Assembly (NCBI GenBank): GCA_045863295.1
Contig: BTWA01000005.1
Coordinates: 64,001 to 128,000, forward strand
Reading direction: 5' to 3'
Length of the DNA: 64,000 nucleotides
Source: Candidatus Hydrogenedentota bacterium
GTDB taxonomy: Bacteria > Hydrogenedentota > Hydrogenedentia > Hydrogenedentales > SLHB01
How positions within the stretch are numbered: position 1 is the first letter of the stretch; each line of letters opens with the position of its first letter. Positions 28,919-56,892 of this stretch are shown piece by piece. The translations under genes were made by a program, and so were the position numbers. The notes beneath the pieces are model-generated. The model saw only the letters and a program-made list of their open reading frames with translations. It did no database searches and had not been told where the DNA came from.

Positions 28919-31330
28919 TCACGCATTGCTGTCAGGAATTATTGACAGCGTTTTCCCTTCGTCCTCTCGCAATTGCCAGTTGTGTTCCCGGCATATGGTT
29001 TCGATAATGCTCCACAGTGTGTATTCGCCGGCGGGCAACGTTATCGAGGTGCTCATTCGATCGGCCTGCGCCGCAATGGTCATATTTTGTTCCGTCGCTT
29101 CGGTCATCTGTTTGCAGAGCGATTCCATAGTTACCGGCGAACCATCGAGCTGAATTCGGCGATTCAAATAGTAGTACCGAATCACGCCGCCACTAATGAC
29201 GGGGTCCTTCCACGGCAATGTGATGCTCGTCTCCTTCCCTTCGGCCATTTCGGCGATCCCGCTTCGCACCCATACGCCGCTACCCAGAATGAACACGGCG
29301 CAGACCGCGTATGAGCCCGGAGGGAAGTTGTTGAACTCGTACGAGGACAACTCTCCAGGCTGCAACCGCCCCAGTGCAACGCTTTGCAACCGGCCGAGCC
29401 GCTCGTCTTCAACGTGCAGGACGGCCATATCTGTCCACAACAGCACGCCGGTATCCCGTGTAATCACGATCAGTCGTGGTGATTTGGACCATTCATCCGG
29501 TCCCGGCTCCACAGTCACGGTCAAGTGCGAATCGCGGCGCTGCATCATTAACTCCGCTGTCACTTGCTGTCCGGTCCCGACTTCAATGGAGGGTATTGCG
29601 CCCCAATACGTCATGGAGCGATCCGTAATGCCGAATGCGTCTACGGCATATTGGCCTTCCCTCAAATCGCTGAAGTGGACCTTGCCATCGGTCTGCTTTT
29701 CCATGCGCCAGGTCTGCCCCGGCCAGTCCTCACGAATGGGATAGAACAAGCCGCCGTTCAAGTCCTCCAGCCGGACGCCAATACTCTGGGCCGCACGCCC
29801 ATCCGGGTCTTTGGTCAAATCGACGTCAATCGTCGCCCCCGGTGTCAGCGACACATCCACAGAGAGTGCGGGAGTGTTTTCCGTAATCGAAAGCGTCTGC
29901 TGATGGCGCACGTAATTCTCGCACGTGACCAGAAATGGGCTTACTTCGTTCATGGCAACCTGTTCCAGCATGAACCGCCCTTGGTCGTCGGTCTCGTCAT
30001 CCACAAGTAGGCCGTCGCGACGTATCCATTCCAGGTTTGCACCGCCGGAGTCTCCGGAATGATCAATACGTACATATGCGCCTTTTATGGGTTGGCCTGT
30101 GGCCGCGTCGGTTACTTTGCCACTTACAGTTCCACGGGGAGACTCAGCGGCCTCTTGCGACGAGGCGACTTGTTCGGAGGCGGTGTCAGCGACAGGTACT
30201 TGGGGCTGCGCGGGAAATGGATTTGGCTCAACCGCAATAGCCACGGGAAGGAATGTGGGCAAGACAACCAAAGCAAAGGCAAAAGTGCCGATCAGGCCCA
30301 GACGCGTGAGCGCGGGACTCCTGTGAACAGTATCGTCAAGAATACGAACCAATCGGCGGCCCAGCGGATGCAAGTTGTCAGCGCATCCGAAAGATAATGT
30401 ATCGTTTTGCGGCCGGATAAGTTCCCGGGCAGCGCGTAGTAGCGTGTCGCTGTATGCATCACCTTCGGCGACTTTCAGTCCAAGGACGACATCGTCGCAG
30501 CAGTTCTCCCGAGTCCGATGCAGGGTGCGGACCAGCAGCCACACGACGGGATTGAACCACCAGATCAACAAGATCAATTTTTCTAACCAGATGAATGCCA
30601 GATCCAGCCTGCGATGATGAGCCAACTCGTGTGCGAGAATCGCCTCCAGGTCGGCAGTGGGCAGCGCATGGGCCAGCCGATCGGGAAGAATCACACCGGG
30701 AGAGAAGATGCCCACCGCGATTGGTGCGCATGCCGAGCGCGAAACCATAAGCCGGACAGACCGGCGCACATTGAGTCTTTTCGCGACCATCACATGCAGA
30801 TCGTAAAGAGGGCCTGAAGTTAACGTCACAGTCTGTTTTAAGAGACGGCCCAATTTCAGATAACTCGCGATCATTGCCATTCCGATGAGCAGCGTACCGA
30901 AGAAATGCGCCGTGAAAAGCGAGAGTTTCCAGTAGTCGGCGGCAACATTCGCCGCTCGCGTTGTAACGCTCTGCGACATTTCATTGGATCGAGGCAAGAG
31001 TCGCGCTTCACTGCCGCCAACAGGGTCAATCGACGGTCCGCGCTTTGCGGAGGCGATTGTTTCCGTGATCGGCTGCGGCCATTCTGTCTGCGAGGTCAAC
31101 GCAGGAGCCGTGTTGTTCAAAATGGGCAACTGTAATGCGGGTGGAATGAGAAACTTGATTGTCGCGACCATGAGCACAGCGTAAAGAAAAGACGCTGAAC
31201 GTTTCTTGAATGCATGCACTGCCGCCATGGCCAGAATTGCCGCCAGACTGGATTGCCAGAGGCAGGGCCATACAACAGCCCACCAGTTTTCCGCGGCTAT
31301 TTCCATCCACAAACGGGTATACATGATCAC
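28919..31330 (-). CDS. BlaR1/MecR1-type peptidase M56 sensor with carboxypeptidase-regulatory-like repeats and a C-terminal STN-like domain
   Basis: TM helices, HELAH, WWFNP, RENCCD; periplasmic GTVSGKVTDAATGQPIKGAYV...TDDQGRF. Confidence 0.9.
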   Translation of the reverse strand: MIMYTRLWMEIAAENWWAVVWPCLWQSSLAAILAMAAVHAFKKRSASFLYAVLMVATIKFLIPPALQLPILNNTAPALTSQTEWPQPITETIASAKRGPSIDPVGGSEARLLPRSNEMSQSVTTRAANVAADYWKLSLFTAHFFGTLLIGMAMIASYLKLGRLLKQTVTLTSGPLYDLHVMVAKRLNVRRSVRLMVSRSACAPIAVGIFSPGVILPDRLAHALPTADLEAILAHELAHHRRLDLAFIWLEKLILLIWWFNPVVWLLVRTLHRTRENCCDDVVLGLKVAEGDAYSDTLLRAARELIRPQNDTLSFGCADNLHPLGRRLVRILDDTVHRSPALTRLGLIGTFAFALVVLPTFLPVAIAVEPNPFPAQPQVPVADTASEQVASSQEAAESPRGTVSGKVTDAATGQPIKGAYVRIDHSGDSGGANLEWIRRDGLLVDDETDDQGRFMLEQVAMNEVSPFLVTCENYVRHQQTLSITENTPALSVDVSLTPGATIDVDLTKDPDGRAAQSIGVRLEDLNGGLFYPIREDWPGQTWRMEKQTDGKVHFSDLREGQYAVDAFGITDRSMTYWGAIPSIEVGTGQQVTAELMMQRRDSHLTVTVEPGPDEWSKSPRLIVITRDTGVLLWTDMAVLHVEDERLGRLQSVALGRLQPGELSSYEFNNFPPGSYAVCAVFILGSGVWVRSGIAEMAEGKETSITLPWKDPVISGGVIRYYYLNRRIQLDGSPVTMESLCKQMTEATEQNMTIAAQADRMSTSITLPAGEYTLWSIIETICREHNWQLREDEGKTLSIIPDSNA

Positions 31331-31800
31331 CCCTCCCTTATTCGGCGACGGGTCTCGGGTTTGCCTTTGAGTTGTCTCACCAATTCATCCAAGGCACGCA
31401 ACTCGTCTTGATTGGGCGGATTTCCATCGAAAAGGGAAGCCATCATGGAAACGAGGCTTCCACCAAAGATGCGTTCGCGCATGCGATTCAAGATGCCTTT
31501 GTAGGTGGATTCCGGCGCGTGATCCGCGCGGTACACAAAGGCCTTGCCCACATTCGCCTTTTCCTTCGAGACGAGACGCTTTTCTTCAAGTCGCTTTAAC
31601 AACGTTACTATGGCGCCATGACTCATGGGGCGGTAAGGCTTCATGATTTCGCGCAGTTGGCGAGCCGTTGCCATTTGTTCTCGCCAAAGGCAGGCCAGTA
31701 CTTCCAGCTCGGCGGTAGGTAGATCTTCAAGCGAAATGGTGGACCCTTTCTTGGGGGTATCCCTGCGGGGCTTATTGTCACGAGTTCCCATGTGCGCCAC
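31327..31800 (-). CDS. BlaI/MecI/CopY-family repressor
   Basis: ELEVLACLW, TLLKRLEEK, GKAFVY, FGGS; ATGA overlap with the M56 gene. Confidence 0.92.
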   Translation of the reverse strand: MAHMGTRDNKPRRDTPKKGSTISLEDLPTAELEVLACLWREQMATARQLREIMKPYRPMSHGAIVTLLKRLEEKRLVSKEKANVGKAFVYRADHAPESTYKGILNRMRERIFGGSLVSMMASLFDGNPPNQDELRALDELVRQLKGKPETRRRIREG

Positions 31801-31876
31801 TCAAAATTGGGCAATACTTTAAATTTATACTGTGTTTTATATTTTGAAATGGGGTTGTTTTGCGGGGTAAATTCTT

Positions 31877-31919
31877 AAAAACAAAAGCGCCGCCGCCCAG
31901 AGGATCCGGGCGGCGGCGC
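31877..31919 (-). terminator. Terminator of the 31941..34202 gene
   Basis: GCGCCGCCGCCC/GGGCGGCGGCGC stem with an A-tract on the left. Confidence 0.75.
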
Positions 31920-31940
31920 GGACGGTCAATGCCTTTTTGT

Positions 31941-34202
31941 CTAGAATCCCATATCCGGCCTCGGCGGTCCGTCGTAGGGTTTTGCTCCGAGGTGCAGGCC
32001 TCGGTGTTCGACGGTCAGCAGGTCTTTGTCCTTGGTGTCAGGCGGCAGGATCATGCCGTAATAGCGTGCCATCCAGTAGGCATCGAGGAATGCCGACGGG
32101 TCGGCCACAGCTTTTCCACCCGCGCCGCCGTCGAGGCGGAGAAAGTCGCTGTCCCACCGGCAGACGCCGATGTCACGCGCGGTCATGCTTTTCCAATCGG
32201 CGACGTAGTTGACGTATTCCTCGGGCACGCTCAAGTCAGTGCGGATGGAGTTTTTGTGGGTGTAGCTTCGGCAGTCGAGCGGCCATGCCTGCAGGTTTTT
32301 CAGCGAGCGTTCGTTGTCCATGGCGTTTCCGGTGAGTGCTCCGTAGATGTAGTTGAACCACACCATATTTTCCACGCGCTTGAGTTCCCACGAGCGTTCG
32401 AGGCTGCGCACGTAAATGGATCGCAATTCCGGGTCGGTTTCGTAGGTCAGCAACGGGTGATATGCAAGAAATGCGAGGCGGTCGTCGAAGTGGGTTATGA
32501 ATGGGAAGGTGATTTTCTGCCGCAACACGGGTAAGTGATATTCCCATTCCAGCAGTTGTTGCTTTCCGTTGCTGAACTTCTCGTTGCCTGTGATGGCATG
32601 TGCCATGGTAATCATGGAGAGGGCTTCGGTGCCGTTCAGGCCCAACTGCACGAGACCGTCGCGGCTATGGAGGTATTCGGGATCCCAGCGAGCCCAACGG
32701 GTGGGTTTTCCGTCGAGATCGCGCAGGGTCCAGCCGTGGTCGACAATGTGGCCTACGACACGGTTTATGTGTTCAATGACAGCGACCTTCGATTTTCCGT
32801 GCGAGGCCAGTTCGTAAAAGATCATGCAGGATTGAATGTGGGAATCCACTTCATCGCTGGAGGTATCGCCTTTCCACAGCCACAGTCCGTCGGGGGTGGG
32901 GTTCCATTCCGAGGGCAGGCCCGCTGAGCCGGTGGCGGCGAGTTGTGACGGTTCGCTGACGGTGGCTATGGCGCGCGCGGGGAATCCGTCGATGGGCGTG
33001 ATTTCCTCGCACCATTTGATGGTGCGGAACACTTCGATGGCTTGTTCGCGCACTTTGGGGTCTTTGGTGACGGCGTATTTGAAGCAATAGGCGTTCATGA
33101 GGTGCGCGGCCCAGCCGCCGTCGTTGTCACTGATGAACCGAACCCATTCGCCGCGGTCCTCGTCCCATGTGAGGGTGCAGATGAATCCGACGCGGCGCAT
33201 GCCCCATTCCTCTATCCATCGCTCGTAGTACGCAGCCTTCTTCTGCAGCGTATACGGTTCATATCGAATGATTCCGAGTCCTCCGTCGGTGGCGATGTAG
33301 GCGACCTTGTCGCCGCATGCGATGGCATTCACCTTATCGTTGGGGATCCAGCGCTGATAGCCGAAGTACTGGTATTCTCCGTCGACATATCGAATGGCGC
33401 CGCGCGTTGTGCCGACCCAGTAGTCTTCCTTTTCAAAGCCGCGGGCGACGCAGGTGGTGTCTTCATAACAGAGGCCTTGTTTGCCTGTAATCGCGATCCA
33501 GCTCATGCCGCGCAGTTCGGCGAGACCTTTGTCAGTTGGGACCATTAAGGCACTGCCGAATGACATCAAGTCACGCGTGACGGAGCCGAGGGGCAGGTGT
33601 CCCCAGTCTTTGACGTCGTCATATTCCAAGGCGCCGTCAATGAGGAAACCGACCTGGGCCTGGTGACGGACATAGATAGTTTCTGCGTACGACGCGACTC
33701 CCAGGATGGGGAGACGGGAGGGGGCCTTGAGGAGGGGAGCGGGTTGGCCGTCGTTTAATCGGTACAGTTGCGTGGGGGAGGCCAATATCACGTTGCCGAG
33801 GTGCACACACGCATCGACGGCGGGTTCCAATTGGAGTTGGTTCCAGGTGCCGTCCGTGAACTGCCATGTTGCCTCGGGCGTGAAGGCGTACAGGGACCCA
33901 TTCAGGGCCTTCAGCCGGTTTACCGCGCTGGAGGGGCCGCCGGCCGCGACGAGGGATTCCCCCTCGAGCCGCAGTACGCCGTTACCCGCGCCCACGTACA
34001 GGACATTTTCCAATACGGCCGCAGCGGTTAACGGGTAGGTGGTTTCCAGGCGGCCTTCGACTTCCTGCAGATATACTTCGTCGCGGACAGGGGTCCATTG
34101 TGGATTTTCGGGTATGGGCAATTCCGCGGGTGCCTGCCCGGGCCACATGCAGAATATTCCGATGACAGCGACGAGTACGCGAACAGACCGATTCGGTTTC
34201 AT
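31941..34202 (-). CDS. Exported protein with beta-propeller N-half and helical (glycoside-hydrolase-like toroid) C-half
   Basis: Signal peptide; propeller blades (WVGTTRGA, YIATDGGL); SDNDG, WKGDTSSDE and AYWMARYYG motifs. Confidence 0.75.
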   Translation of the reverse strand: MKPNRSVRVLVAVIGIFCMWPGQAPAELPIPENPQWTPVRDEVYLQEVEGRLETTYPLTAAAVLENVLYVGAGNGVLRLEGESLVAAGGPSSAVNRLKALNGSLYAFTPEATWQFTDGTWNQLQLEPAVDACVHLGNVILASPTQLYRLNDGQPAPLLKAPSRLPILGVASYAETIYVRHQAQVGFLIDGALEYDDVKDWGHLPLGSVTRDLMSFGSALMVPTDKGLAELRGMSWIAITGKQGLCYEDTTCVARGFEKEDYWVGTTRGAIRYVDGEYQYFGYQRWIPNDKVNAIACGDKVAYIATDGGLGIIRYEPYTLQKKAAYYERWIEEWGMRRVGFICTLTWDEDRGEWVRFISDNDGGWAAHLMNAYCFKYAVTKDPKVREQAIEVFRTIKWCEEITPIDGFPARAIATVSEPSQLAATGSAGLPSEWNPTPDGLWLWKGDTSSDEVDSHIQSCMIFYELASHGKSKVAVIEHINRVVGHIVDHGWTLRDLDGKPTRWARWDPEYLHSRDGLVQLGLNGTEALSMITMAHAITGNEKFSNGKQQLLEWEYHLPVLRQKITFPFITHFDDRLAFLAYHPLLTYETDPELRSIYVRSLERSWELKRVENMVWFNYIYGALTGNAMDNERSLKNLQAWPLDCRSYTHKNSIRTDLSVPEEYVNYVADWKSMTARDIGVCRWDSDFLRLDGGAGGKAVADPSAFLDAYWMARYYGMILPPDTKDKDLLTVEHRGLHLGAKPYDGPPRPDMGF

Positions 34203-34305
34203 GGTGTCCCCTCCCCAGAGTCAGAAAACGTGCGCTATTCAGCTTCCATCATAGGGGTCGTGACGGGCGAGGGCAAGTGGCGGGTTCGGTCCGCGTTCGC
34301 GGTGC

Positions 34306-34334
34306 TTTTCAACGAGGCGCCCGGTATCTATAAT
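34306..34334 (+). promoter_or_regulatory. Sigma-70-type promoter of the oxidoreductase operon
   Basis: TTTTCA-17 bp-TATAAT. Confidence 0.55.
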
Positions 34335-34374
34335 GGCGGGGTATCCGTTTCAAGGCAGCGAAGGAGGGAGAATC

Positions 34375-35541: not shown

Positions 35542-35550
35542 CGTAGCGCA

Positions 35551-35916
35551 ATGTGGTGGCCGTGGCAATCGCATCAGGCAAAGGTACTTTGCGGCGCGCT
35601 CAGCGTGGCCGAGCGCGCAGGGTTGGGAGTTGTGATGGCCGTGTATCCGGCATGGCTTGTGTATGCGGTAGGCATGCCTTTGGTCCGTCTGCTGTTGAAT
35701 CCCGGGCTGCCGGCCGCACTCAGTGCGTTGTATTTTCTGGCGCTTACGGTCTGTTTCACGTACGTGTACCTGTGTGTGGCGAAGTGTTATTTGCTGTTGA
35801 CGAGAGAAGGGCGGCGACTCGCGTACCGGGCCGACGCCTTGGCACTGTTTCGATTTGACGAACGAGAAGGGGAACCGCGCCACGACGGCGCAACTGGAGG
35901 GAGGACCGAAACATGA
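35551..35916 (+). CDS. Small membrane protein
   Basis: Two hydrophobic segments; exactly fills the gap between flanking genes; ATGA overlap downstream. Confidence 0.55.
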   Translation: MWWPWQSHQAKVLCGALSVAERAGLGVVMAVYPAWLVYAVGMPLVRLLLNPGLPAALSALYFLALTVCFTYVYLCVAKCYLLLTREGRRLAYRADALALFRFDEREGEPRHDGATGGRTET

Positions 35917-36878: not shown

Positions 36879-36896
36879 GTGCAATTGGATTGATTG

Positions 36897-36935
36897 AAGC
36901 GAGGGCCATCCCGGTGGGATGGCCCTCGCTTTTTT
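36897..36935 (+). terminator. Intrinsic terminator, possibly bidirectional
   Basis: AAGCGAGGGCCATCCC/GGGATGGCCCTCGCTT stem followed by a T run. Confidence 0.85.
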
Positions 36936-36937: not shown

Positions 36938-37921
36938 CTATTCCACGATCTTGCCGGTGACGACCACGAACATGGCGTCCTCTCCGCCGGAGAGGTTGCT
37001 CTTGCCAACGACCACGCTTTGTCCGACCTTCAAGTCCACGTTGGCGCGAATGCCGGTTTCCGACATGGAACCCGCAGGGACCCGCATGGGCGGACGCGCG
37101 GGCGATCCTTCCGGTAGCGGAGTTGGGGGCGAGATGTATTCCGTGCCAAAGACAAAGTCGTCGAGTTGAATGCGACTGTTCTCGCCGGAGCCGGCGATGC
37201 GTAGCTGATTCACCATCAGGTTGTAGTTTCGCTTAGCGCCTTCGACGTCGACCGGCAAGACGCCTGAAGTCGAAGTTTCGGAATCTTCCCGCCCCCGAAT
37301 CCACAGCGTGTCGATCAATTTGTATGATTTGTAGGGGAAAGTTTCCGTCAATTGATAGACGACTTCACCCAGTGCGTCGGGCAATGTTTGCGGTTCGCCT
37401 TCCATAGTCCCTTGCAGTAAGTACATGGTCAGCTCGACATTTCGATCGGTATTCTCCGAATCGGGATCTTTTCTCACCACGTCGAGGCTGTCAATCATCG
37501 CCTCCACAGCCGGCATGAGACGGGCCGGCCCGATGACGACGATACTGTTGGAACTGGCGGCCTCGACGGCTCTTACGTTGAGTAGGCTGACCATCTGGGC
37601 GATTTCCTGCGCTTCCGCATGGGAGAGTTGAAAAACGCGCGTTTCAGCCGTCAAGGATTCAGCCGCCTTTTTTGCGAAATTGAGGACCTCGTACACTTCA
37701 TCCGTTTCGCGTTTTGCCTCGGCATCGGGAGTGTCTGCCGATTTTTGCGCAAAGGCGTTCATATGGGTTTGCGCCAATGTGGCCAAGTGGGCTAATTCTT
37801 CATCCGTGTAGTCCAAGGCGGCAGGCACAGGTTTTCTCTGTTCCTGGGCTTCCGCGTTCAGTGCTTCCGAACACACAAAGCTACAAGCCAGCATAAAAAC
37901 CAGCAGCGGATATTGTTTCAT
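36938..37921 (-). CDS. Small secretin-like exported protein (one N3/NolW-like domain plus reduced secretin-like core)
   Basis: Signal peptide; TRVFQLSHAEAQEI...SNSIVVIGP...MIDSLDV; NVELTMYLL; IRANVDLKVGQSVVVG...MFVVVTGKIVE. Confidence 0.65.
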   Translation of the reverse strand: MKQYPLLVFMLACSFVCSEALNAEAQEQRKPVPAALDYTDEELAHLATLAQTHMNAFAQKSADTPDAEAKRETDEVYEVLNFAKKAAESLTAETRVFQLSHAEAQEIAQMVSLLNVRAVEAASSNSIVVIGPARLMPAVEAMIDSLDVVRKDPDSENTDRNVELTMYLLQGTMEGEPQTLPDALGEVVYQLTETFPYKSYKLIDTLWIRGREDSETSTSGVLPVDVEGAKRNYNLMVNQLRIAGSGENSRIQLDDFVFGTEYISPPTPLPEGSPARPPMRVPAGSMSETGIRANVDLKVGQSVVVGKSNLSGGEDAMFVVVTGKIVE

Positions 37922-38475
37922 GACGAACCTCCTTCGTTGTCGGTCACCAGAATAATGACCACATTGGGATCATCTGTTGCCAGACGGATCTGTGAAAGTT
38001 TCAAGGGTGTACGCGGGGATTTGGGCGCATCGACGGGGGCCAGATCCGAGTCAGGGACAATTCTCTCCTGGGGTACCGGATCGTACTTTGCGATGGACCT
38101 TTGCGAGGTGGATTCAATTCCCGCGTCGTTGACGTTGCTCTCCTGGGTGATCCAATAGAGCGCGGCGCCGCATGCAATAAACGCTGTGACTGCAACCCAG
38201 CCAATTTGCGCCGCGGGAGACCAACGAAACGACTTCTGCGGCGTCTCCTTGAGGATTGCGGCACGCACCTGTTCCCGCAGTTCTTTGCAGTCCGCCTCGT
38301 CTATGCGCGAGGTGTGCATTGCCTTATACATTTCCTGACTTTGCCTCAACTCATTTGCGAATTGTTTGCAATGCCCGCATTGCGCGAGATGACTCCTGAT
38401 TGCCAGTGAAACGAGTTTACCCGTATCGCCCGCCACCCAGAGGGCGATCTGCTTTTCGCAGGTCTTACACGTCAT
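37918..38475 (-). CDS. Zinc-finger (ZAS) anti-sigma factor, single TM
   Basis: MTC...HLAQCGHC (HxxxCxxC); one TM helix; overlaps the sigma stop. Confidence 0.85.
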   Translation of the reverse strand: MTCKTCEKQIALWVAGDTGKLVSLAIRSHLAQCGHCKQFANELRQSQEMYKAMHTSRIDEADCKELREQVRAAILKETPQKSFRWSPAAQIGWVAVTAFIACGAALYWITQESNVNDAGIESTSQRSIAKYDPVPQERIVPDSDLAPVDAPKSPRTPLKLSQIRLATDDPNVVIILVTDNEGGSS

Positions 38476-39076
38476 GAGATCGTTCCTTTTCGGCTTCATA
38501 GAACCGTTTCATCTTCAGGCGCGCTCTGCGCAGGTACGTCCGCACCGTTACTTCGAAACAGTTCATGGCTTTCGCCACTTCGCGGGCAGGCAGTTCTTCC
38601 AAATCGCGAAGTACAACGGCCGTGCGCTCACGTTCAGTCAGTGTGTGAAGGGCGCGTTGCAGAAATGACTCGCGCTCTTCGCGCCGCAATCCGGCGTCGG
38701 CGGCGCCTGGTGTTCCCCGCGTGGCCGACGCTTCCACGCGGGACAGCGTAACCGCCGTTCGCATTCTCCTGCGGGCGGCGTCGCGACAGGCATTGACCGT
38801 CAACCGGTAGAGCCAGGGTTCCAGCGGGCGCGACCCGTCGAACCGGTCAAAGTGGCGAAAGAGCCGCAGGAACACCTCTTGCGCGGCATCCTGAGCGTCT
38901 TCGCGGTTTCCGAGCAGGCGTAGCGCCGTTCGCAAGACCAGCGCCTCGTGGCGGACCAGCAGGGCGTCGAAGGCGGACAAATCCCCCGTTTTGGCGGCGC
39001 TCACCCAGGCCGATTCTTCCGAATCGCCTGAAGGCGCTGTCATGAGCCACGCGAGTTGTCCGTTTTTCGCTTCCAC
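38465..39076 (-). CDS. ECF sigma factor
   Basis: GDLSAFDAL, DAQDAAQEVFLRL, WLYRLTVN, region-4 HTH TVRTYLRRAR. Confidence 0.93.
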   Translation of the reverse strand: MEAKNGQLAWLMTAPSGDSEESAWVSAAKTGDLSAFDALLVRHEALVLRTALRLLGNREDAQDAAQEVFLRLFRHFDRFDGSRPLEPWLYRLTVNACRDAARRRMRTAVTLSRVEASATRGTPGAADAGLRREERESFLQRALHTLTERERTAVVLRDLEELPAREVAKAMNCFEVTVRTYLRRARLKMKRFYEAEKERSHDV

Positions 39077-43519: not shown

Positions 43520-45139
43520 TCACCGCGATACCGGCGCCACGATGGGTGTTCGACTCACGGTAAATTCGCGGTTGCGCTCACCGAGATACACAAACGGCGA
43601 ACTGGCTTTTCGAAATGCACTTGCCGCCAGGGGCGACGTTTCAACGACATCCGCCAGGAACGGCGCAGCTAAGTAATATGCGCTCACGATGCCTTGCCCC
43701 ATCGCAGTCGGCTGCAACGTCTGGTCGCGGAAACTACGCAGGGCCTCAATTGCGCCAGGGTAATCCTTGAATGCCTTTTCCGCGGGGCAGATGCCGGTGT
43801 CCGTTCCGGGTCCCGGACCCGGATTGGTACCCTTCACATAATTCTGAATGGTCGGGTAAAAATCGCGAAACGAGGTGTAGTAATCTTCGTTGAAACGGGT
43901 ATCGGTGCAACTGTGCGTAGGGCCGTTGCTGAGTGTGCCTGTGATGCGATAGGCGGACGCGACCAGCAGCAATGGACTTCCCGACGACCCTCCTTCCGTT
44001 ACGCCGTTGTTCCAGTCCACATACGTCTGTTTTACAAACCCGGAGGAAGCCTGGTTGATGGCTTTTACCTGGCCATACGAAATGCGCATGTATTCGCCGC
44101 GCGGGAAGTGAATGCCTACAAGGTTTTCATTGACGACCGGGGCGCGCGTTTCCCAACCCAAATAGGCACGCCCCAAGGGGCCGCCGGGGACTTGATCGAG
44201 CCGCATCAACGTGAGGTCCAAGGTGCTGCTTGTGCCCAGCACGGACACACCGTTGCTTCGAGGCAGCGAAGAAAAAGACGGAGGATCGTTTGCGTTGCAA
44301 CTTGACGTTCGAAAGTCCCAGAGGATGTCCACTTGATTTGCATTGGCGTAACTGGGCACGCAATGCCACGACGTGAGATAGTAGGGCTCGTTTTCCGCCG
44401 TATCCGGATTATTGATGAGCGCGCCTGAGCACAGCGCACTGTCGAAATTACCGCTCGGGATAACCATCACGCCCACGCCGGTGGACAGGTTCTGGACCGT
44501 GGAATTGGACTCGCAATTCACGTCGATGTTGCACGACAGGGCCGCTTTGAGTTCGGCCGCCGATCGGAAGAAATGCGATACGCCCTGGAGTTCAATGGCT
44601 GGAGGGGTGTTGCCGGGTGTGCGCGCGACCAGCAACGCTGTATCGCCCTCGGTTGTGGGGAGCCAGTTGCCTTCGGGGATGCTGTCCTCTTGCGTATACG
44701 GTCCGAATGCACGTCCTCCCACGGTGTCGACCACATAGATCTCCTCGCCCTCGGCAAGTTGAGACAAGTCGACGATGAGGCGGAGTGCCGTGGCATCTGC
44801 CGAAACGATGGCGGCCAAGAAGACCGTGTATTCCTGGTCTTGGAAACTCGAGCCGAAGAGCGGGATGCCGGACATGTCCGCGGCGAATCCGGCGCCGACG
44901 CGCAGGACTTTTCGGTCGGTTTCAAAGGATTTCAGGGCTTCGTTCTTTCCCAGGTATGGCGCGAACGCGTGCACTTGATCGACCTGGGTTAGATAATTCT
45001 GTACGGTTTCCAACGGTAATGCGCTTAATGTGTCAAGCGATTTGGCCGCGACGGGCGCCTGATACGCGTAATCTGCGAATTGGCCGGCTTGCGCGTAGGC
45101 CGTAGATGCGATAAGTATTGCTAAACCCAGTTGGCGCAA
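43520..45139 (-). CDS. Secreted trypsin-like (lysyl endopeptidase-type) protease with CFI-box-CTERM-like tail, paralog 1
   Basis: CSGALINN, LTSWHC, DLTLMRL, EGGSSGSPL triad; LRSFRD...G...V..YY tail; TTG start after AAGGAG. Confidence 0.88.
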   Translation of the reverse strand: MRQLGLAILIASTAYAQAGQFADYAYQAPVAAKSLDTLSALPLETVQNYLTQVDQVHAFAPYLGKNEALKSFETDRKVLRVGAGFAADMSGIPLFGSSFQDQEYTVFLAAIVSADATALRLIVDLSQLAEGEEIYVVDTVGGRAFGPYTQEDSIPEGNWLPTTEGDTALLVARTPGNTPPAIELQGVSHFFRSAAELKAALSCNIDVNCESNSTVQNLSTGVGVMVIPSGNFDSALCSGALINNPDTAENEPYYLTSWHCVPSYANANQVDILWDFRTSSCNANDPPSFSSLPRSNGVSVLGTSSTLDLTLMRLDQVPGGPLGRAYLGWETRAPVVNENLVGIHFPRGEYMRISYGQVKAINQASSGFVKQTYVDWNNGVTEGGSSGSPLLLVASAYRITGTLSNGPTHSCTDTRFNEDYYTSFRDFYPTIQNYVKGTNPGPGPGTDTGICPAEKAFKDYPGAIEALRSFRDQTLQPTAMGQGIVSAYYLAAPFLADVVETSPLAASAFRKASSPFVYLGERNREFTVSRTPIVAPVSR

Positions 45140-45143
45140 TGGA

Positions 45144-46853
45144 TTACTCCTTTGTGGGCGCTTCGAGTCCGCTTTGCGCGGGCAAAGTTGGGTTCATTGT
45201 ACCATGTATAGACCTTGTACCGGCCTGGCTTTGGCCTGTTACATCCATTCGATTTCCCCATTCCGCTACGGGAAGCGCGATCGCCGTGAACGCGTTTCGT
45301 GCCACACCCGGTGTCGCTACCCAGCGGGCCATCTCCGGTGCGACTTTGTAGTATCCGTTTACCACGACGCGACCCGCAGCGTATTTGTTCAAACCCAAAT
45401 CCCTGAACGAGCGCAGTCCTGCCAGGATACCCGGATTGTCTTTGAACAGGAGTGCCGCGGGACACAGGGGTTGTACCGGATTCCAGCTTGCACAATAGCC
45501 GTGGGGCACGGAGTCGGGCTGAGGCGGGGTGGTGCCGCTGAGGAATCCGGATGCCTGTAACGCGAAATCCGGCACTGAGCCCAGCCAGTCGTCATTGTAT
45601 GTGGTAACCGTACAGGACATGTCCGGTCCGTTGCTCGTTACGCCTACGATGCGGTAATCCTTGCCGGGCAGCAGCACAGGCGATCCGGACGAGCCTTGTT
45701 CGGTAGTGCCGTTTGTGTAGTTGACGTGGATTTGCTGGACGAAGCAATCGGAGAATTCGTTGGTGCCTCGAACGGTTCCATAGGTGATTCGCATGTGCGA
45801 CCCGTTGGGGTGATGAATTGCGAGAACCGCCTCGCCTATTGACGGTGTTTCGGCCACCCATCCGAGATAGGCCCGGCCCAGCGAACCCACAGGCACGGAC
45901 GACAACCGCATGAGGGTTACGTCGAGGCTTGCGTTGGAAGAGAGGACGACTTCACCGTCACTTCGAGGCAGGCTTGCCAAGCCGGGCGGATCGTCCAATC
46001 CGCATCCCGAGGCGCGATAGTCCCATATAATGTCCACCTGGCCGGGAAAGAGGTAGTCGGGCACGCAATGCCATGCAGTGAGGAAATACGGTTCAAATGC
46101 TTGCGTGTCCGGATTGTTGATCAACGCGCCCGAGCATACCGTGCTGTCCAGCGTGGTGCCGCCGGACGTGACCATCAATCCGATACCAGTGGAGACTTGT
46201 TGCGCCATCGAGTCGTTGTCGCATGCGATGTTGTTGTGACAGGGCAACAATTTCAACGTGTCCGAAAGCGGCCGAAAGAAGTGGGACAATCCCAGGATCT
46301 CGAACGACGGAAGCGATTGTGTCGATCCGGTTGCGATAATAATTGCGGTGTCGCCTTGGATTGTGGGGGTCCAGCGGCCTCCCTCGACGGCGTCGGATTT
46401 TGTAAACGGTCCGAAGGCGCGTGGGCCGGTAGGATCTACCACGTAGATTTCCTCGCCCTGGTTGAGGGTGGATAAATCCAGGAACAAGCGCATGCCTTCG
46501 GCGTCGGCGGATTGAAGCGCGGCCGAACGAAAATAGACCGGGCCATCCCATTTGCCTTCGCCGAACAAATCGGCGGACAGGATATGTAGAGGCAATCCGC
46601 GCCCCACTTGATGAACGCCGGACGGTTCTGTTTCGGTTTCCAGCAGGGCGTTTTTGCCTTGGAAAGAAGTTATCACGTGGACGGCATCCACGTAGTTCAG
46701 ATAGGTTTGCAGCGTCCCGTCGGCAATCGATTTGGGGCCAGGCTGGACGTTGAGCGGAGAGTCCGGGGGGATGAATGCATGGGGAGCGGACATTTGGGCA
46801 CAAAGGTTCGCACATACAAAGGCGGCCGACACGACAATTGACGAAACGCGCAT
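45144..46853 (-). CDS. Secreted trypsin-like (lysyl endopeptidase-type) protease, paralog 2
   Basis: CSGALINN, LTAWHC, DVTLMRL, EQGSSGSPV; same tail. Confidence 0.88.
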   Translation of the reverse strand: MRVSSIVVSAAFVCANLCAQMSAPHAFIPPDSPLNVQPGPKSIADGTLQTYLNYVDAVHVITSFQGKNALLETETEPSGVHQVGRGLPLHILSADLFGEGKWDGPVYFRSAALQSADAEGMRLFLDLSTLNQGEEIYVVDPTGPRAFGPFTKSDAVEGGRWTPTIQGDTAIIIATGSTQSLPSFEILGLSHFFRPLSDTLKLLPCHNNIACDNDSMAQQVSTGIGLMVTSGGTTLDSTVCSGALINNPDTQAFEPYFLTAWHCVPDYLFPGQVDIIWDYRASGCGLDDPPGLASLPRSDGEVVLSSNASLDVTLMRLSSVPVGSLGRAYLGWVAETPSIGEAVLAIHHPNGSHMRITYGTVRGTNEFSDCFVQQIHVNYTNGTTEQGSSGSPVLLPGKDYRIVGVTSNGPDMSCTVTTYNDDWLGSVPDFALQASGFLSGTTPPQPDSVPHGYCASWNPVQPLCPAALLFKDNPGILAGLRSFRDLGLNKYAAGRVVVNGYYKVAPEMARWVATPGVARNAFTAIALPVAEWGNRMDVTGQSQAGTRSIHGTMNPTLPAQSGLEAPTKE

Positions 46854-46913
46854 AGTCCCGCTACCTGTTTGAAAACAGCACACCCCAACCCCGCGTTGCG
46901 CGTGTACTATACT

Positions 46914-49774: not shown

Positions 49775-49782
49775 CCGCTATC

Positions 49783-50106: not shown

Positions 50107-50122
50107 GGATCCCCTCGCGCTG

Positions 50123-50896: not shown

Positions 50897-51094
50897 ACAA
50901 TCCTGTTGGCGAGCCGCCCCGAATTCTCAGTAATGCAGCCCGCCCGCCTTGGCGAACCGTAATCATAGCATGAACAGGGAGATGCCGCATCCCTGCGCAC
51001 GATCCGTGGAAACGGCACCCCGGGATTCGTTACTTCCACATTCAGTGGAATGGGCGACTCTTGCGGGGGTGGCCAAGGTACGGCGAGCATTCGC

Positions 51095-52444: not shown

Positions 52445-52791
52445 GCCGTTTTGCTTTCTGGTTTTGCCGCACGCGATCGTTCGATCACCCAGGCTACGGT
52501 CAGGATTAACATCCAGATTCCGCTGAAGGCCAACCCACCGGATTCGCGGGCCTGTTCCGTTTCCAGAAAAGGCTTTTCCAACACGGGAAACCACCACCAT
52601 GCGACGCCTAGAAATGCGAGCGCGCCTGTAGCCGCGAACGCAATGTCGGTTCGCTTCAATCCCACGAGCGTCACGACAAACGGATAGAGATAAATGAGCA
52701 TCCAGATAACACCATCGGGATCGTTGTATTGCACGATGATGCTGGCGGCAAATGGGATGAGCATCAGTCCGCAGGAAATTTTTCTCAACAT
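52441..52791 (-). CDS. TMEM220-like membrane protein
   Basis: VQYNDPD and EQARESGGL motifs; about four TMs. Confidence 0.75.
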   Translation of the reverse strand: MLRKISCGLMLIPFAASIIVQYNDPDGVIWMLIYLYPFVVTLVGLKRTDIAFAATGALAFLGVAWWWFPVLEKPFLETEQARESGGLAFSGIWMLILTVAWVIERSRAAKPESKTA

Positions 52792-52897
52792 AAAGTCGGC
52801 TCCATCTTGGCTTTCTCACAGAGGTGGTCGAAACCGACTGCGTGCGTTTGCGAGTCGGGTTTCCGGCACTTTCCACGTACATTATCGAGCCAAGGTA

Positions 52898-53542
52898 TCA
52901 TTCCACGTCGGTCACCGGCCATTCCAACGGCAATGACACGCCCAGAGGCTGCATAAAATCCACGATGATTCGATAGGTCAAGCCCCAGATAGTGTACCCT
53001 TGGTAGTGGAAGCTGGGAAAAAGTCTTCGCAGTGGATCGGGAGGAAATATATATTCGCGCACGTTGGCCGAATCGCTGAAATGGGATACCGGTACCCATA
53101 CCGCAGCGGCGACTTCGTGGTTCAAAACGAGGTCGTGTTTCACCGGGCAATGGTAAACATAGGGTGATACCGATAGTTGAAAGTCCGCCAGGCGGCCGCC
53201 GGTTACATCGCTTAACCTCGCCAGTAGCGAATCCGGAGCAATTCTTAAACCGACTTCCTCATAGGTCTCGCGGCGCGCCGCTGCCTCGGTGGAGTCGTCC
53301 TCCGGGTCCTGTCGGCCACCGGGAAACGCCATATGGCCCGACCATGGATCCTCGGGATGATGCGCGCGTTGGATGAACAGCATTTCCAGGCCATCCGTGC
53401 CGTCGTGCAATGCGACCGCGACCGCGGCCTTTCGTTGCGCATCCTGCGATGGGATGGCTTTGTGAGCACGGGAGTTGAACGCCCGTTGGATTTCCGCGAG
53501 CGTTAGCTTCGGAGGTGAAATGGGATCGGGCACAGCAGACAT
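52898..53542 (-). CDS. Nudix hydrolase, CoA pyrophosphatase type
   Basis: WSGHMAFPGG, AARRETYEEVGL, IWGLT. Confidence 0.92.
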   Translation of the reverse strand: MSAVPDPISPPKLTLAEIQRAFNSRAHKAIPSQDAQRKAAVAVALHDGTDGLEMLFIQRAHHPEDPWSGHMAFPGGRQDPEDDSTEAAARRETYEEVGLRIAPDSLLARLSDVTGGRLADFQLSVSPYVYHCPVKHDLVLNHEVAAAVWVPVSHFSDSANVREYIFPPDPLRRLFPSFHYQGYTIWGLTYRIIVDFMQPLGVSLPLEWPVTDVE

Positions 53543-53615
53543 CCGAGGGTTCTATTGCTACTGACCACACACACCGCATCAGTATACATTCGAAGCCCTC
53601 GAACTTTCGAACCGC

Positions 53616-55301
53616 CTATTCCGCCCGCGTGGGCGGAGGAGGAGCGTATACGCCACGGGGCACGAATGGCACCGGCTCTGTATTTCCGTCTCCATCGACG
53701 TCTCTCAGCCTGAATTCCGTGGGTGTACCGGAGTAGATGGGTATTTCGGTATGAGCCACTTCTTCGATCGTAAGCACAATGGCCAAAAGCGACTTTTCTC
53801 CCATGGGTGTGGTGAAGATGTATATATCGCCCTTGGAATACTCGTAATCTGCACGAAGCGAAGCGGTGTTGTATGCGGGGAGTGGTTTCAATACCACTTG
53901 CTGCCGGTGATATGCCAGCATTTCCACGCGAAACGTGTCCATGGAGTTGGTTGGATGGATTCGTAGTCCGAGCAGGATTCCAGTGGGGAAGAGTTTCTCG
54001 ACGCCGTCCGCCGTAGCGGAGGCCACATCAGCAATTAAGGCTCCTCGATTTCCCATGAATTCAACAATCTCCGGATCCATTTTGAGCAACGGTTTAAAAG
54101 AATCCGATTCGCGGATGCTGGATGAAGTCACTACTTTGGATGCGTACCCCCGCGCGTTGTCGGCAAGCAACGTAGTCACACGAGGAGCGGAAAGCGTTTC
54201 AGTATCTTTATGGCGCGAAAAAGAATCCAGGATAGACTGTTTATACTCGGCCGTCTTTTCTGGATCGACGGGTACCCGGTAGGCTTTGAATTGACCCTTG
54301 TGAGTGACAATAGAGTCTGCTTCAGGGAGCGATCTCAATGCGGTTTCCGCAGTAGCCACATTCACTTTGCAGAATGCAGCTTCTATCGAAACCTGCCGGG
54401 ATGGAGTACCGGTGGGGACATTGGATTGAACCCGCAGCAAGTGGATGGAGTAGACCGCATTGTTTTCCTCGGCGGAAATTGGCATACCGCCAAATCCTCC
54501 TTTGCTCATGCCACCGCCGAATGATCCTCCTCCGAAGCTGCCACCTCCGAACCCCCCACCCCCGATTCCGCCATGGGCCCCTGTGCCATTGGCAGACTTA
54601 CCCATAGAATCCGCGGGCACCGTGTTCTTCAGCACGATTTTGAAAAGCGTATCCACTTCAGTCGCCGTCCGCACCGTTTCGTTGCTTTCCAATTCAGGCA
54701 GTTCGCGCTTTAAAACAAAGATCCACCGGCCGAGCTTTGCTTCTGTGAGCGTGTCCCATTCCGACTTTGAGAATTTCGGCATCCCAACCTCGGGCATCAC
54801 GCCTTCCAGGGGAACGCGCCCCGCCAAAACCGAGTCGGTTCCTTTCATAGCAACCTTGACTGATTGGTCGTCTGAGCCCGGTTGAATCGTAAGTTCTATG
54901 CGGGATACCGGTGCGGACTCCGAATGTTTCAGCCGATAGAGGTTATCCTTTTCCAGTTCGAAATACTCGATTGGTTCGCCTTCGCTTACTATCTGGTATC
55001 GCTTCCCCGCGTCAGCCGCGATCTTTGCATCGGTCACCTGCTCCGCGAATTCATTACCCGGAGCCCAATCGGGATGCCACTTCAAGAAGCCATTTAATTC
55101 CGCGGACAGCTTTAATCCAGGCATCAACTCCACCGGGACATCTTCAATTACTCCCGTCACAACGGCACCATCCACTTTGGGGTGAAACGCCTCGCCCGCC
55201 GGCGCTTTCAAACGAAAACTCTGATACACCACGGTATATTGCGATTCTCCCCAAGCCAAGGCGCCTATCATGCCCAAGGCGGCCATCCATGCGGTTCGCA
55301 T
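53616..55301 (-). CDS. Exported protein with two secretin-core-like modules and a Gly-rich linker
   Basis: Signal peptide; QVSIEAAFCKV, ETLSAPRVTTL, TGILLGLRIHP; N-half homologous to 55335..56033. Confidence 0.6.
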   Translation of the reverse strand: MRTAWMAALGMIGALAWGESQYTVVYQSFRLKAPAGEAFHPKVDGAVVTGVIEDVPVELMPGLKLSAELNGFLKWHPDWAPGNEFAEQVTDAKIAADAGKRYQIVSEGEPIEYFELEKDNLYRLKHSESAPVSRIELTIQPGSDDQSVKVAMKGTDSVLAGRVPLEGVMPEVGMPKFSKSEWDTLTEAKLGRWIFVLKRELPELESNETVRTATEVDTLFKIVLKNTVPADSMGKSANGTGAHGGIGGGGFGGGSFGGGSFGGGMSKGGFGGMPISAEENNAVYSIHLLRVQSNVPTGTPSRQVSIEAAFCKVNVATAETALRSLPEADSIVTHKGQFKAYRVPVDPEKTAEYKQSILDSFSRHKDTETLSAPRVTTLLADNARGYASKVVTSSSIRESDSFKPLLKMDPEIVEFMGNRGALIADVASATADGVEKLFPTGILLGLRIHPTNSMDTFRVEMLAYHRQQVVLKPLPAYNTASLRADYEYSKGDIYIFTTPMGEKSLLAIVLTIEEVAHTEIPIYSGTPTEFRLRDVDGDGNTEPVPFVPRGVYAPPPPTRAE

Positions 55302-55334
55302 TAGCGCATCTCCTTGACGTGTACGGCGTGAATT

Positions 55335-56033
55335 CTATTCCGCCTTGGAGTCCTGTGGTTTGTACTCGGTCACGCGGAAGTAGACTGCAATCTTTACCTG
55401 AGCCTCGGCCGGGGTGCTCGCCTCCGATTGTATTGCCTGATCGTCTTGCACCGTCAAAACCATCCACTTACCCAGTTCAATTGCTTCCGGCGTGTCCAGC
55501 GTACTCGCCAACGTGCGAATGTCGGGTTTACCCACTGGCAACTGTGTTCCTTCAACCGGCGCGCGTGCCGCGACGGCGGCAACGTTGCAGGTCATTCGCA
55601 ATGCGACCTTGGCTGGATTGTCCAGTGGAGTGAACGAGGCGGCCAATTCTATGCCGGGCGCCGTATCGGAGTTTTTCAATTCATAGCGGTTATCGCCGAC
55701 AAACTCGAAGTACTGCAAGGGTACGTCGCCGCCAATGCGGATGTTTGCTTCCGCCCCTTCGAGGGTCACGATTCTGGGCGCCGCAAGGACGGTGTAGGAC
55801 TGGTGTATCCAGGCGTGATCTATTTCGCCTCCGTTTACATCTACGGGCTCCAGAATTGATGGGTTCCGTTGTGAGTTTTCAGTTGCCTCATCCGAGACGT
55901 TTTTCTCACTGTGCTCGGGAATTTTCTGGGCTATCACAAATTCCGCTGAATATTGGATCTCCGCCGCGAGACAGAGGGTAGAAAACCCACTGAGTCCCAA
56001 CACGGCCAATTGTCTGTAAACAGTGCGTCTCAT
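55335..56033 (-). CDS. Stand-alone minimal secretin-core-like exported protein
   Basis: Signal peptide; VLAAPRIVTLEGAEANIRIGGDVP, GIEL, PDIRT, IAVYFRVT. Confidence 0.65.
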   Translation of the reverse strand: MRRTVYRQLAVLGLSGFSTLCLAAEIQYSAEFVIAQKIPEHSEKNVSDEATENSQRNPSILEPVDVNGGEIDHAWIHQSYTVLAAPRIVTLEGAEANIRIGGDVPLQYFEFVGDNRYELKNSDTAPGIELAASFTPLDNPAKVALRMTCNVAAVAARAPVEGTQLPVGKPDIRTLASTLDTPEAIELGKWMVLTVQDDQAIQSEASTPAEAQVKIAVYFRVTEYKPQDSKAE

Positions 56034-56416
56034 GTGGACGGACTCCTTTCTTGATTGGGCTGCTCTGGTTCTTCCAGTTCGATTACATAGGCGCGGTTAC
56101 GCCTGGGCTTGTCCGTGGATTGGAAACGTGCGGGCAGGTCAAATACGTTTGCGCTGCCCTGGGTTTCCTGGACGATATATATAATTTCACGACTGGGTGT
56201 AGCCTGCTGTCCGCGATAGAGCCAGGTTGCCGCTCCAAACCCGAGGGCAAGACATACGGCACATGCGCCCAGCATCGCGCGAAGTGTCACTCTCGATCCG
56301 TGCATTCTCTGCCGGCCGATGGCCGATTTCAGCAATAAGGCTTCCACGCGGCGATCGAGTTGATCGGAAGGGCTGCACAGTGCCCGTTGCCGCAACCGGT
56401 CTTCCATGTCGTTCAT
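56030..56416 (-). CDS. Putative single-TM anti-sigma factor
   Basis: ATGA overlap with the sigma gene; short helical N-terminus (MEDRLR...PSDQLDRRV), one TM. Confidence 0.7.
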   Translation of the reverse strand: MNDMEDRLRQRALCSPSDQLDRRVEALLLKSAIGRQRMHGSRVTLRAMLGACAVCLALGFGAATWLYRGQQATPSREIIYIVQETQGSANVFDLPARFQSTDKPRRNRAYVIELEEPEQPNQERSPST

Positions 56417-56892
56417 GCTTCATTCTCCCGGGTCATTGCCTGGAGTTTTTCAAGGCCGCGCCGGTACCACGATGCCGCTGTGCTCACCGGCACACCGCGC
56501 ACGTCGGCGATTTCCTGAAACGTGAGGCCGTTGTACAGTTTCATCACGATGCATTCGCGCTCGTCGTCGCCGAGATGAGTCAACATAAATTCAATGTCAT
56601 GTCCGGCACCGGCCGCAGGGGGTTCCGTGTGCCGGCCGTTGAATATGAACTGATCGCGGTTTCTGACCGTGTTGCGGCGTAGATCGTCCATTGCCGCATT
56701 ACGGACCATGCGAAACACATAGGGGCGGAGGTCTTCCGGCGGTTGTCTAAGCTCCAGCAACCGGGCAATCGCACCATGCACAATATCTTCCGCCACTTCC
56801 CGGTTTTTTGCCAGCGCGAGCGCGTAGGTGAACAGGGCGTCCCGATGGGATTCGTAGAATCGGCGCACGATATCGGTTAATTCCGCGTTCAG
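56413..56892 (-). CDS. ECF sigma factor (start CTG 56892 or GTG 56868)
   Basis: AEDIVH, YVFRMVRNAAMD, GLTFQEIA...STAASWYRRGL. Confidence 0.92.
   Translation of the reverse strand: MNAELTDIVRRFYESHRDALFTYALALAKNREVAEDIVHGAIARLLELRQPPEDLRPYVFRMVRNAAMDDLRRNTVRNRDQFIFNGRHTEPPAAGAGHDIEFMLTHLGDDERECIVMKLYNGLTFQEIADVRGVPVSTAASWYRRGLEKLQAMTRENEA

Follow-up and report, generated by a model that had tools for sequence, protein, structure and literature searches.

Two families of putative envelope-signalling trios combining extracytoplasmic function sigma factors, short-tailed anti-sigma factors and small secretin-fold proteins

Introduction

In a 64 000-nucleotide (nt) stretch of DNA from a Candidatus Hydrogenedentota bacterium, below called the window (assembly GCA_045863295.1, contig BTWA01000005.1, C5:64001-128000), we found two loci, named B and C, that follow a common plan. 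Each encodes a sigma factor of the extracytoplasmic function (ECF) type, an anti-sigma factor that crosses the membrane once and has a very short periplasmic tail, and one or two exported, cut-down secretins, having one N3-type domain and a shortened core in locus B, and bare cores in locus C. We regard it as about evenly balanced whether B and C represent two separate families of one three-part envelope module, i.e. a signalling trio with the secretin-fold protein as envelope partner of the anti-sigma factor. That the trios are conserved points to a mode of cell-envelope sensing not described before, and what is new herein is family C, the motif in the anti-sigma tail and how often it occurs, a promoter word and the existence of stand-alone members.

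ECF sigma factors form the largest class of alternative sigma factors, and for most of their groups both the signal and the sensor are unknown. In the present findings, sequence clusters numbering in the hundreds (667 at E≤1e-30) share a fixed partner of recognisable fold and a short, conserved and putative docking motif on the anti-sigma factor, which yields a sensor hypothesis open to testing for phyla of soil and sludge, in which such studies are difficult. If true, the roles of the secretin fold would widen from export pores to signalling parts. Since Paludibaculum fermentans, a cultured species, carries the trio (locus L037), experiments are possible.

The analysis started from an earlier reading of the window made from the letters alone, here called the original prediction, according to which three regulatory loci are paired with secretin-related sequence. 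For loci B and C this was confirmed by fold and by gene order, while for the third locus, A, the proposed STN-like end has a structural lead and no support at the sequence level. The original prediction also named two outcomes that would tell against it, i.e. no secretin fold or neighbours that are not conserved, and for loci B and C neither was found.

Results and discussion

Locus B encodes a predicted mini-secretin behind a sigma/anti-sigma pair

Locus B consists of three open reading frames (ORFs) on the minus strand, positions 36938-39076, with an overlap of 35 nt between the sigma and anti-sigma genes and of 4 nt between the anti-sigma and mini-secretin genes (Table 1). Overlaps of 4 nt, also present in locus C, amount to translational coupling. 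For the sigma factor, the generic TIGR02937 was the sole NCBIfam model that passed its cut-off. The anti-sigma factor scored 19.8 bits with the Pfam family zf-HC2, under the cut-off of 22.2, and contains the H-x3-C-x2-C signature of the zinc-binding anti-sigma (ZAS) type, which is kept in the consensus of the alignment of its homologues (A4 type). In the third protein, of 327 amino acids (aa), residues 94-149 form an N3-like Secretin_N domain (34.9 bits versus a cut-off of 28.2), followed by a core at about residues 158-327. The Pfam scores, the ZAS motif and the Secretin_N domain together bore out the original reading of this locus as an ECF sigma/ZAS anti-sigma/mini-secretin unit.

The core of the 327-aa protein gave no match to the Pfam Secretin model (PF00263) at E≤0.01, and the protein is absent from the eight PF00263 matches of its own genome; a profile of its family, below family B, meets the secretins of PDB via the N domain only. 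An AlphaFold2 model built with 117 family sequences as alignment had a predicted local distance difference test score (pLDDT) of 84.7, and Foldseek gave 39 matches at E≤1e-3, all of which were secretins among the matches listed, with low template modelling (TM) scores of 0.25-0.35. From this model the 327-aa protein is predicted to have the secretin-core fold. Its core of about 170 aa is roughly half the usual span, and since it also goes unseen by the Pfam Secretin model, we find 'mini-secretin' a fair name; the term was not found in the literature searched.

A helical extension of about 60 aa (residues 27-90, window 37654-37843) separates the signal peptide from the N domain; it is present in relatives of the same order (306-365 aa) and missing from acidobacterial members of 230-270 aa.

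Gene order is conserved across family B

A shared-word homologue search with the 327-aa protein returned 8 relatives, and the family B profile matched 5619 cluster representatives at E≤1e-3, those within the 667 of the stricter threshold included, most of them being 230-270 aa long. By scanning one genome per species we obtained 68 family B loci, nearly all in Acidobacteriota (Bryobacterales, Terriglobia) and one labelled Rhodospirillales; 67 were kept for the synteny count, the remaining one having no ORF match to the mini-secretin. In 63/67 loci an ECF sigma gene was located on the same strand no more than 1.5 kb upstream, with two of the four misses being short of upstream DNA, and homologues of the A4-type anti-sigma factor sit between the sigma factor and the mini-secretin.

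At eight acidobacterial loci we determined which ORF directly precedes the sigma gene; in six of them (L001, L002, L025, L035, L063, L067) it encodes PheT, the phenylalanyl-tRNA synthetase beta chain, and all four downstream ORFs tested in acidobacterial trios encode zinc alcohol dehydrogenases. These flanks place the trio at a fixed position of the core genome in these Acidobacteriota. An upstream ORF of about 750 aa, considered as a conserved partner of the module, was accordingly rejected, as it is PheT, a housekeeping neighbour like the zinc alcohol dehydrogenase downstream. Family B trios also occur in other flanks, next to genes for an S9 peptidase or MacB and, in the window and thus in another phylum, a nucleoside transporter.

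Within the order to which the window belongs, full-length family B members were found in 17 other genomes, nine of them with a sigma and/or anti-sigma gene directly upstream and eight without. Apart from seven members without the pair that have at least 1 kb of upstream DNA, one (L153) lies 227 nt from a contig start and one (L163) is cut by a contig end. Coupling of the mini-secretin to the sigma pair is hence frequent and not obligatory, as judged from the stand-alone mini-secretins in seven or eight of these relatives.

Giant proteins of 3396-5532 aa (P0015, P0019, P0032, P0047 and others) were also among the best matches to the mini-secretin profile; each holds 26-47 separate matches to its Secretin_N-like part, so that N domains are repeated there in long arrays.

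The anti-sigma tail and the promoter of family B

The motif T-x-D-P-x-V-V-I was present at the C-terminal end of 57/63 family B anti-sigma factors, and the six misses are probably wrongly picked frames. Nearly invariant in the alignment of A4-type anti-sigma factors are T175, D177, P178 and V180, and the hairpin is retained in eight Hydrogenedentota relatives from the order of the window. The remainder of the periplasmic part is a variable linker, rich in proline and arginine. That the tail is short and has the terminal hairpin as its sole conserved part suggests docking by strand addition, for which the adjacent mini-secretin is the candidate partner.

Co-folding of anti-sigma residues 150-193 with mini-secretin residues 89-327 gave a score of 0.50, classed as 'weak support', compared to 0.00 for the best of three controls; the runs agreed in at least 81% of contacts, with a partner pLDDT of at least 52. 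In the calibration of this procedure, the mark was reached by 116/157 solved complexes and by 2/215 mismatches, with 18/157 of the complexes and both mismatches at scores of 0.60 or below. The modelling of the tail complex that the original prediction had called for set the candidate pair apart from its controls, with a score in the weak band of the calibration.

Upstream of 41/64 family B sigma genes we identified the promoter word TCAAC(G)-N17-CGTAT with constant spacing, whereas in shuffled sequences any motif reached at most nine. This word, present in acidobacterial members, is a -35/-10 pair of ECF type, which fits self-activation. We also tried to define a regulon through the exact word and rejected the attempt, as 17 matches in five genomes versus eight for a reversed control, with 3/17 being the operons' own sites, are too near chance.

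Locus C encodes two further predicted secretin-core proteins

Locus C comprises four genes on the minus strand (53616-56868), the first three of which overlap by 4 nt. The original prediction had placed its end at 56892, which is an in-frame CTG; the first ATG, GTG or TTG start is at 56868. The sigma frame is open upstream of this GTG without a canonical start, and the sigma factors of relatives are about 10-20 aa longer. No Pfam or NCBIfam family was found for the 128-aa protein. Common to 18 homologues from related loci are a short helical region at the N-terminus, the membrane helix, and a tail of about 55 aa that contains a conserved T-V-Y-I-V-like strand.

The 232-aa protein scored 23.0 bits with Pfam Secretin (PF00263), short of the gathering score of 27.5 and covering profile positions 7-90 of 169. 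Its AlphaFold2 model, based on 21 family sequences, had a pLDDT of 80.2 and a predicted TM-score of 0.74, and gave 29 Foldseek matches at E≤1e-3, again all secretins among the matches listed, so that a secretin-core fold is predicted for this protein as well. The structural check asked of the third genes in loci B and C thereby came out as the original prediction expected. For the 561-aa protein no Pfam match was seen. Its N-terminal half is a paralogue of the 232-aa protein (31% identity, E 5e-13) and is joined to the second half by a glycine-rich, low-complexity linker (residues 241-272, nt 54486-54581). The C-terminal half resembles Secretin-bearing clusters of the ESM Atlas, with TM-scores by query of 0.50-0.57 over 179-210 residues, which we take as a lead, the Atlas model having a pLDDT of 0.53. 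The predicted fold of the 232-aa protein, together with the paralogy and Atlas match of the 561-aa protein, upholds the description of locus C as a sigma/anti-sigma pair with two secretin-core proteins.

A shared-word homologue search with the 232-aa protein found no relative, nor did a related-locus search of genome contigs with the locus C sigma factor alone. By genome searches, family C members were found in 26/133 genomes of the order, and in 22/25 of the other family C genomes a sigma gene lies upstream on the same strand. Of the three misses, one member begins where its contig ends, another is truncated by the retrieved flank, and the third has 1.1 kb of upstream DNA without a sigma gene. 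The survey for sigma/anti-sigma/secretin-like triplets, proposed originally, thus found them conserved in both families, and with gene order being kept across many genomes, the pairing in B and C exceeds chance. None of the four accessory proteins of the two loci is represented by a model in NCBIfam.

An AT-rich intergenic stretch of about 470 nt (56869-57341) separates the locus C sigma gene from a divergent hybrid histidine kinase gene.

Table 1. Positions of the features of loci A, B and C in the window
Feature	Position	Strand	Evidence or remarks
Locus B ECF sigma factor, 203 aa	38465..39076	-	Sigma70_r2 63.9 bits, Sigma70_r4_2 50.3 bits
Locus B ZAS-type anti-sigma factor, 193 aa	37918..38499	-	H-x3-C-x2-C at residue 37; one membrane helix 96-117 (hydropathy)
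Anti-sigma C-terminal hairpin motif, residues 166-187	37939..38004	-	core T-x-D-P-x-V-V-I-(Y/I)-W
Locus B mini-secretin, 327 aa	36938..37921	-	signal peptide, helical extension of ~60 aa, Secretin_N, shortened core (predicted)
Locus C ECF sigma factor (GTG start), 151 aa	56413..56868	-	Sigma70_r4_2 42.9 bits, Sigma70_r2 36.2 bits
Locus C anti-sigma-like protein, 128 aa	56030..56416	-	one membrane helix 43-67, periplasmic tail of ~60 aa (hydropathy)
Locus C bare secretin domain, 232 aa, exported, without N domains	55335..56033	-	Pfam sub-threshold and predicted fold
Locus C exported protein, 561 aa	53616..55301	-	N-terminal secretin-type domain ~20-235; second, secretin-like domain ~280-556
Locus A BlaI-type repressor, 157 aa	31327..31800	-	Penicillinase_R (PF03965) 66 bits
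Locus A BlaR1-type M56 membrane protease/transducer, 803 aa	28919..31330	-	Peptidase_M56 (PF05569) 109.6 bits; HELAH at residue 234
BlaR1 C-terminal domain, ~88 aa (residues 716-803)	28922..29185	-	candidate STN/N0-like fold, Atlas model only

Relation to classical secretins and to the secretion machines of the genome

Compared with classical secretins, such as GspD/PulD, PilQ, InvG/MxiD, pIV of phage f1, RcpA of the Tad system and BfpB, the proteins of loci B and C are a quarter to half the size (232-327 aa), lack N0, N1 and N2 domains (locus B) or any N domain (locus C), and are missed by, or stay below the threshold of, the Pfam Secretin model. They also stand behind sigma/anti-sigma pairs instead of having ATPase, platform or pilin genes as neighbours. 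The genome's own secretins are open frames of 427-1122 aa; it has seven full secretin genes, all outside the window, and some of these canonical genes adjoin T2SSE and T2SSF genes (e.g. C1:258425 with C1:259723 and C1:261151), which loci B and C do not.

We considered if the small secretin-fold proteins could instead be spare or accessory subunits, i.e. caps, assembly factors or an alternative ring, of type II secretion or type IV pilus machines, with their genes located apart from those of the machines and placed under stress control. The folds are the same, and a genome with seven full secretins, 19 T2SSE and 18 T2SSF matches would have machines for such subunits to serve. However, none of these T2SSE and T2SSF matches is inside the window, the closest T2SSE being found about 12 kb past its end, and among the 51 window ORFs searched with Pfam there were no ATPase, platform or pilin families of type II, type IV pilus or type III systems, in line with what the original prediction had said of the window. 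With the sigma pair, and not machine genes, as the constant neighbours in 63/67 loci, we hold a role as accessory subunits to be very improbable.

Locus A as a related theme

The third locus follows the BlaI/BlaR1 (MecI/MecR1) plan, with a Penicillinase_R repressor followed by an M56 zinc-protease transducer that has an intact HExxH motif. Unlike BlaR1 proper, it lacks by Pfam the penicillin-binding (transpeptidase-like) sensor domain, and its periplasmic part carries CarboxypepD_reg-type beta-sandwiches and an unassigned end of 88 aa. One CarboxypepD_reg domain spans residues 401-495 (nt 29846-30130) with 34.2 bits, and the periplasmic part has further beta-sandwich-like stretches with weak prealbumin-like matches. 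Against the NCBIfam model blaR1_generic the protein reached 94 bits, over profile positions 81-300 only; with a score so far under the cut-off of 400, it is not an equivalog of the beta-lactam sensor.

The BlaI/BlaR1 pair of the original prediction was thus verified by Pfam and the HELAH motif, and its STN/N0-like end was not. Residues 716-803 gave no Pfam match at E≤10, PF07660 and GspD N0 included, no STN match at E≤0.1 in a scan of the own genome, and an hhalign score of 14.5 against 25 STN domains of relatives, compared to 15.1 for the best of 30 shuffles. No homologues were found by shared words, with weak matches (E 0.006-0.009) in 2/132 other genomes; a phmmer search of PDB gave only E≥0.27, to the unrelated YejM; and BLASTP against two STN-bearing BlaR1 paralogues gave nothing. 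The ESM Atlas model of this end does match N-terminal parts of secretin, STN and TonB-receptor clusters, with TM-scores by query of 0.63-0.74 over 82-86 residues, a match that lies under the bar for naming a family, its feature scores of 0.88-0.90 being leads only.

An STN-like end is nonetheless plausible for such a transducer. Two other BlaI/BlaR1 pairs of the genome, which holds eight M56 matches, show sub-threshold matches to STN (18.5 and 21.6 bits) and GspD N0 (17.7 bits); in one Atlas cluster M56 (100%) occurs together with Secretin (67%) and STN (30%); and the sigma regulator PupR is reported to end in an STN subdomain that binds the signalling domain of the receptor (PMC7186176). Locus A may therefore be a related theme, namely a membrane transducer with an STN/N0-like end, as suggested by the structural model. 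We do not count it as a third instance yet, since the STN call did not pass any of the sequence tests and has a single structural lead behind it.

A 1142-aa BlaR1 paralogue behind its own BlaI (L135, C61:8800-13400, ORF 737-4165) ends in SecDF_P1_head (68.5 bits), with a sub-threshold STN match; a sensor part of this kind is unusual in an M56 transducer.

Proposed working of the trios and alternative explanations

In the working that we propose for loci B and C, the secretin-like protein would assemble in the outer part of the envelope, where the anti-sigma tail would dock on it through its conserved terminal strand or hairpin, an arrangement that would keep the anti-sigma factor stable and the sigma factor silent. 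A changed state of the secretin-like protein, be it occupancy, damage or failed assembly, might then free the tail, upon which the anti-sigma factor would be degraded and the sigma factor would turn on its own operon. Oligomer or ring formation, the location, the signal and the proteolytic release are features that we infer. The tails of both anti-sigma factors are too short for sensors and carry conserved strand motifs, which lends indirect support to the idea of a partner.

Several observations weigh against the secretin-fold proteins being such partners. Binding of the tail to the mini-secretin is likewise something we infer, and the co-folding pass that suggests it falls in the weak band, where, for passes at 0.60 or below, errors outnumber correct calls unless the guess had been likely from the start. 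Being kin at one position behind pheT, many of the 63 syntenic loci do not count as independent. In seven same-order members with at least 1 kb of upstream DNA, four of which belong to one genus, there was no sigma factor, anti-sigma factor or tail motif in any frame, and the existence of such stand-alone members means that a mini-secretin can work without the switch. The locus B of the window itself lacks the TCAAC-N17-CGTAT promoter. Support from RNA is minimal, consisting of one error-free metatranscriptome contig in each of two wastewater runs of one study, covering 38684-38998 of the locus B sigma gene, with none over the anti-sigma and mini-secretin genes; such contigs show neither strand nor level and may stem from DNA carry-over, and the uncovered downstream genes are uninformative. 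As for the fold, the TM-scores of the locus B and C models to solved secretins are low (0.24-0.37) with large root-mean-square deviations, and the family C profile reaches secretins of PDB (GspD chains) only at E 0.077-0.6. Finally, a gene transcribed together with that of a sigma factor may just as well be an output of this factor.

The latter point leads to an alternative in which the secretin-like proteins are a mere regulated output, such as a small pore of the outer membrane or a ring in the periplasm acting as relief valve or scaffold, with envelope stress being sensed otherwise and the tail binding something else or nothing. Their genes lie downstream in an apparently self-activating operon, stand-alone family B members exist without a sigma pair, and the promoter word being barely enriched genome-wide would make the operon itself the main part of the regulon, all as this explanation would have it. 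Yet nothing but the terminal hairpin is conserved in the periplasmic part of the anti-sigma factor, and this hairpin accompanies the mini-secretin in two phyla; a sensor domain would not fit into tails of 55-75 residues; and the co-folding score exceeded its controls, if weakly. We find a pure output role, the main alternative to the partner role, unlikely.

It is possible, if doubtful, that there is no single system at all, with B and C being unrelated families that share a fold, locus A an ordinary BlaR1-like protein having a generic alpha/beta end, and their recurrence partly coincidence. Beyond their last strands, no sequence relationship between families B and C can be detected (hhalign probability 6.6%), a result that also counts against a common module; the BlaR1 end fails all STN sequence tests and has no detectable homologues; and both ECF pairs and BlaR1 paralogues are numerous in the genome. 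On the other hand, each family on its own keeps the order of sigma factor, short anti-sigma factor and secretin-fold protein, and for locus A there are the STN and GspD N0 traces in the two other BlaI/BlaR1 pairs, the Atlas cluster joining M56, Secretin and STN, and the matches of the Atlas model of the BlaR1 end to STN-bearing clusters.

Going beyond a signalling trio in loci B and C, secretin-fold proteins might have been recruited repeatedly as the outer-envelope half of TonB-independent signalling, forming rings or plates that hold the C-terminal hairpin of a switch, an extension that we see as rather doubtful. Should it be true, the switches would be ZAS anti-sigma factors, minimal anti-sigma factors and perhaps BlaR1-type M56 proteases, having the assembly, occupancy or damage of the secretin-fold protein reported to transcription, and this would constitute a new class of cell-surface signalling in Acidobacteriota and Hydrogenedentota.

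Relation to known signalling systems

In the scheme proposed for loci B and C, a secretin-fold protein may take the place that the TonB-dependent receptor has in cell-surface signalling, an analogy for which we see arguments of about equal weight on either side. Like FecI-FecR-FecA, and also PupI-PupR-PupB and FoxI-FoxR-FoxA, the trios combine an ECF sigma factor with a single-pass regulator and an outer-envelope protein from the world of secretins and TonB receptors. In FecIRA-type systems the C-terminus of the regulator reads the periplasmic face of the outer-envelope protein. Judged as a unit of this type, sigma factor, regulator and envelope partner were kept together in the 63/67 loci of family B, the 22/25 of family C and the 9/17 same-order loci given above. 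In contrast to FecIRA-type systems, loci B and C have no TonB-dependent barrel, plug or STN signalling domain and no FecR or FecR_C domain. By Pfam, TonB_dep_Rec, Plug and STN had no match in the two loci or in the window ORFs scanned, the five STN matches of the genome all being located away from the window, and the anti-sigma factors gave no FecR or FecR_C match, but a sub-threshold zf-HC2 or no family in Pfam and weak generic anti-sigma matches only in NCBIfam. They are of the ZAS type or a minimal 128 aa, have a tail of 55-75 aa instead of a folded domain of about 200 aa, and are accompanied by a secretin-core protein as partner.

Another parallel is PUMA3 (VreA-VreI-VreR) of Pseudomonas aeruginosa, whose receptor VreA is reported to be small and barrel-less, carrying just an STN-like domain (PMC2729926); this shows that a reduced member of the same domain world can serve a sigma/anti-sigma pair. 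It differs in that VreA consists of an STN domain and a TolA/TonB-like C-terminal domain without a secretin core and that VreR is FecR-like, whereas the proteins of loci B and C keep the secretin core, have one N3 domain or none, and give no STN match. The docking and release that we propose would be in keeping with transducers having been reported to shield the anti-sigma factor from proteolysis when the signal is absent (PMC11637429). Neither in the literature searched nor in the supplement of an ECF re-classification (PMC7826278), in which later groups may be missing, did we find secretin-type genes beside ECF pairs.

Other features of the window

The stretch of DNA covered by the window recurs in sludge and bioreactor metagenomes from several studies and belongs to a 6.3-Mb genome that is 96% complete. 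A gene in it resembling phosphoglucosamine mutase shares 70-80% identity with genes from assemblies of Candidatus Hydrogenedentota. Among the 51 ORFs scanned, Pfam identified chromosomal household genes encoding ClpB, FtsH, a folate enzyme, glycosyltransferases, sugar metabolism proteins and a hybrid histidine kinase. Two tandem paralogues of 539 and 579 aa at 43520-46883 each have a Trypsin_2 peptidase domain. A 165-aa ORF at 23010-23507 covers just positions 162-313 of the 329-position Beta-lactamase profile (PF00144), and with two short ORFs directly upstream of it, the region 22404-23507 may represent a split or frameshifted serine-hydrolase gene.

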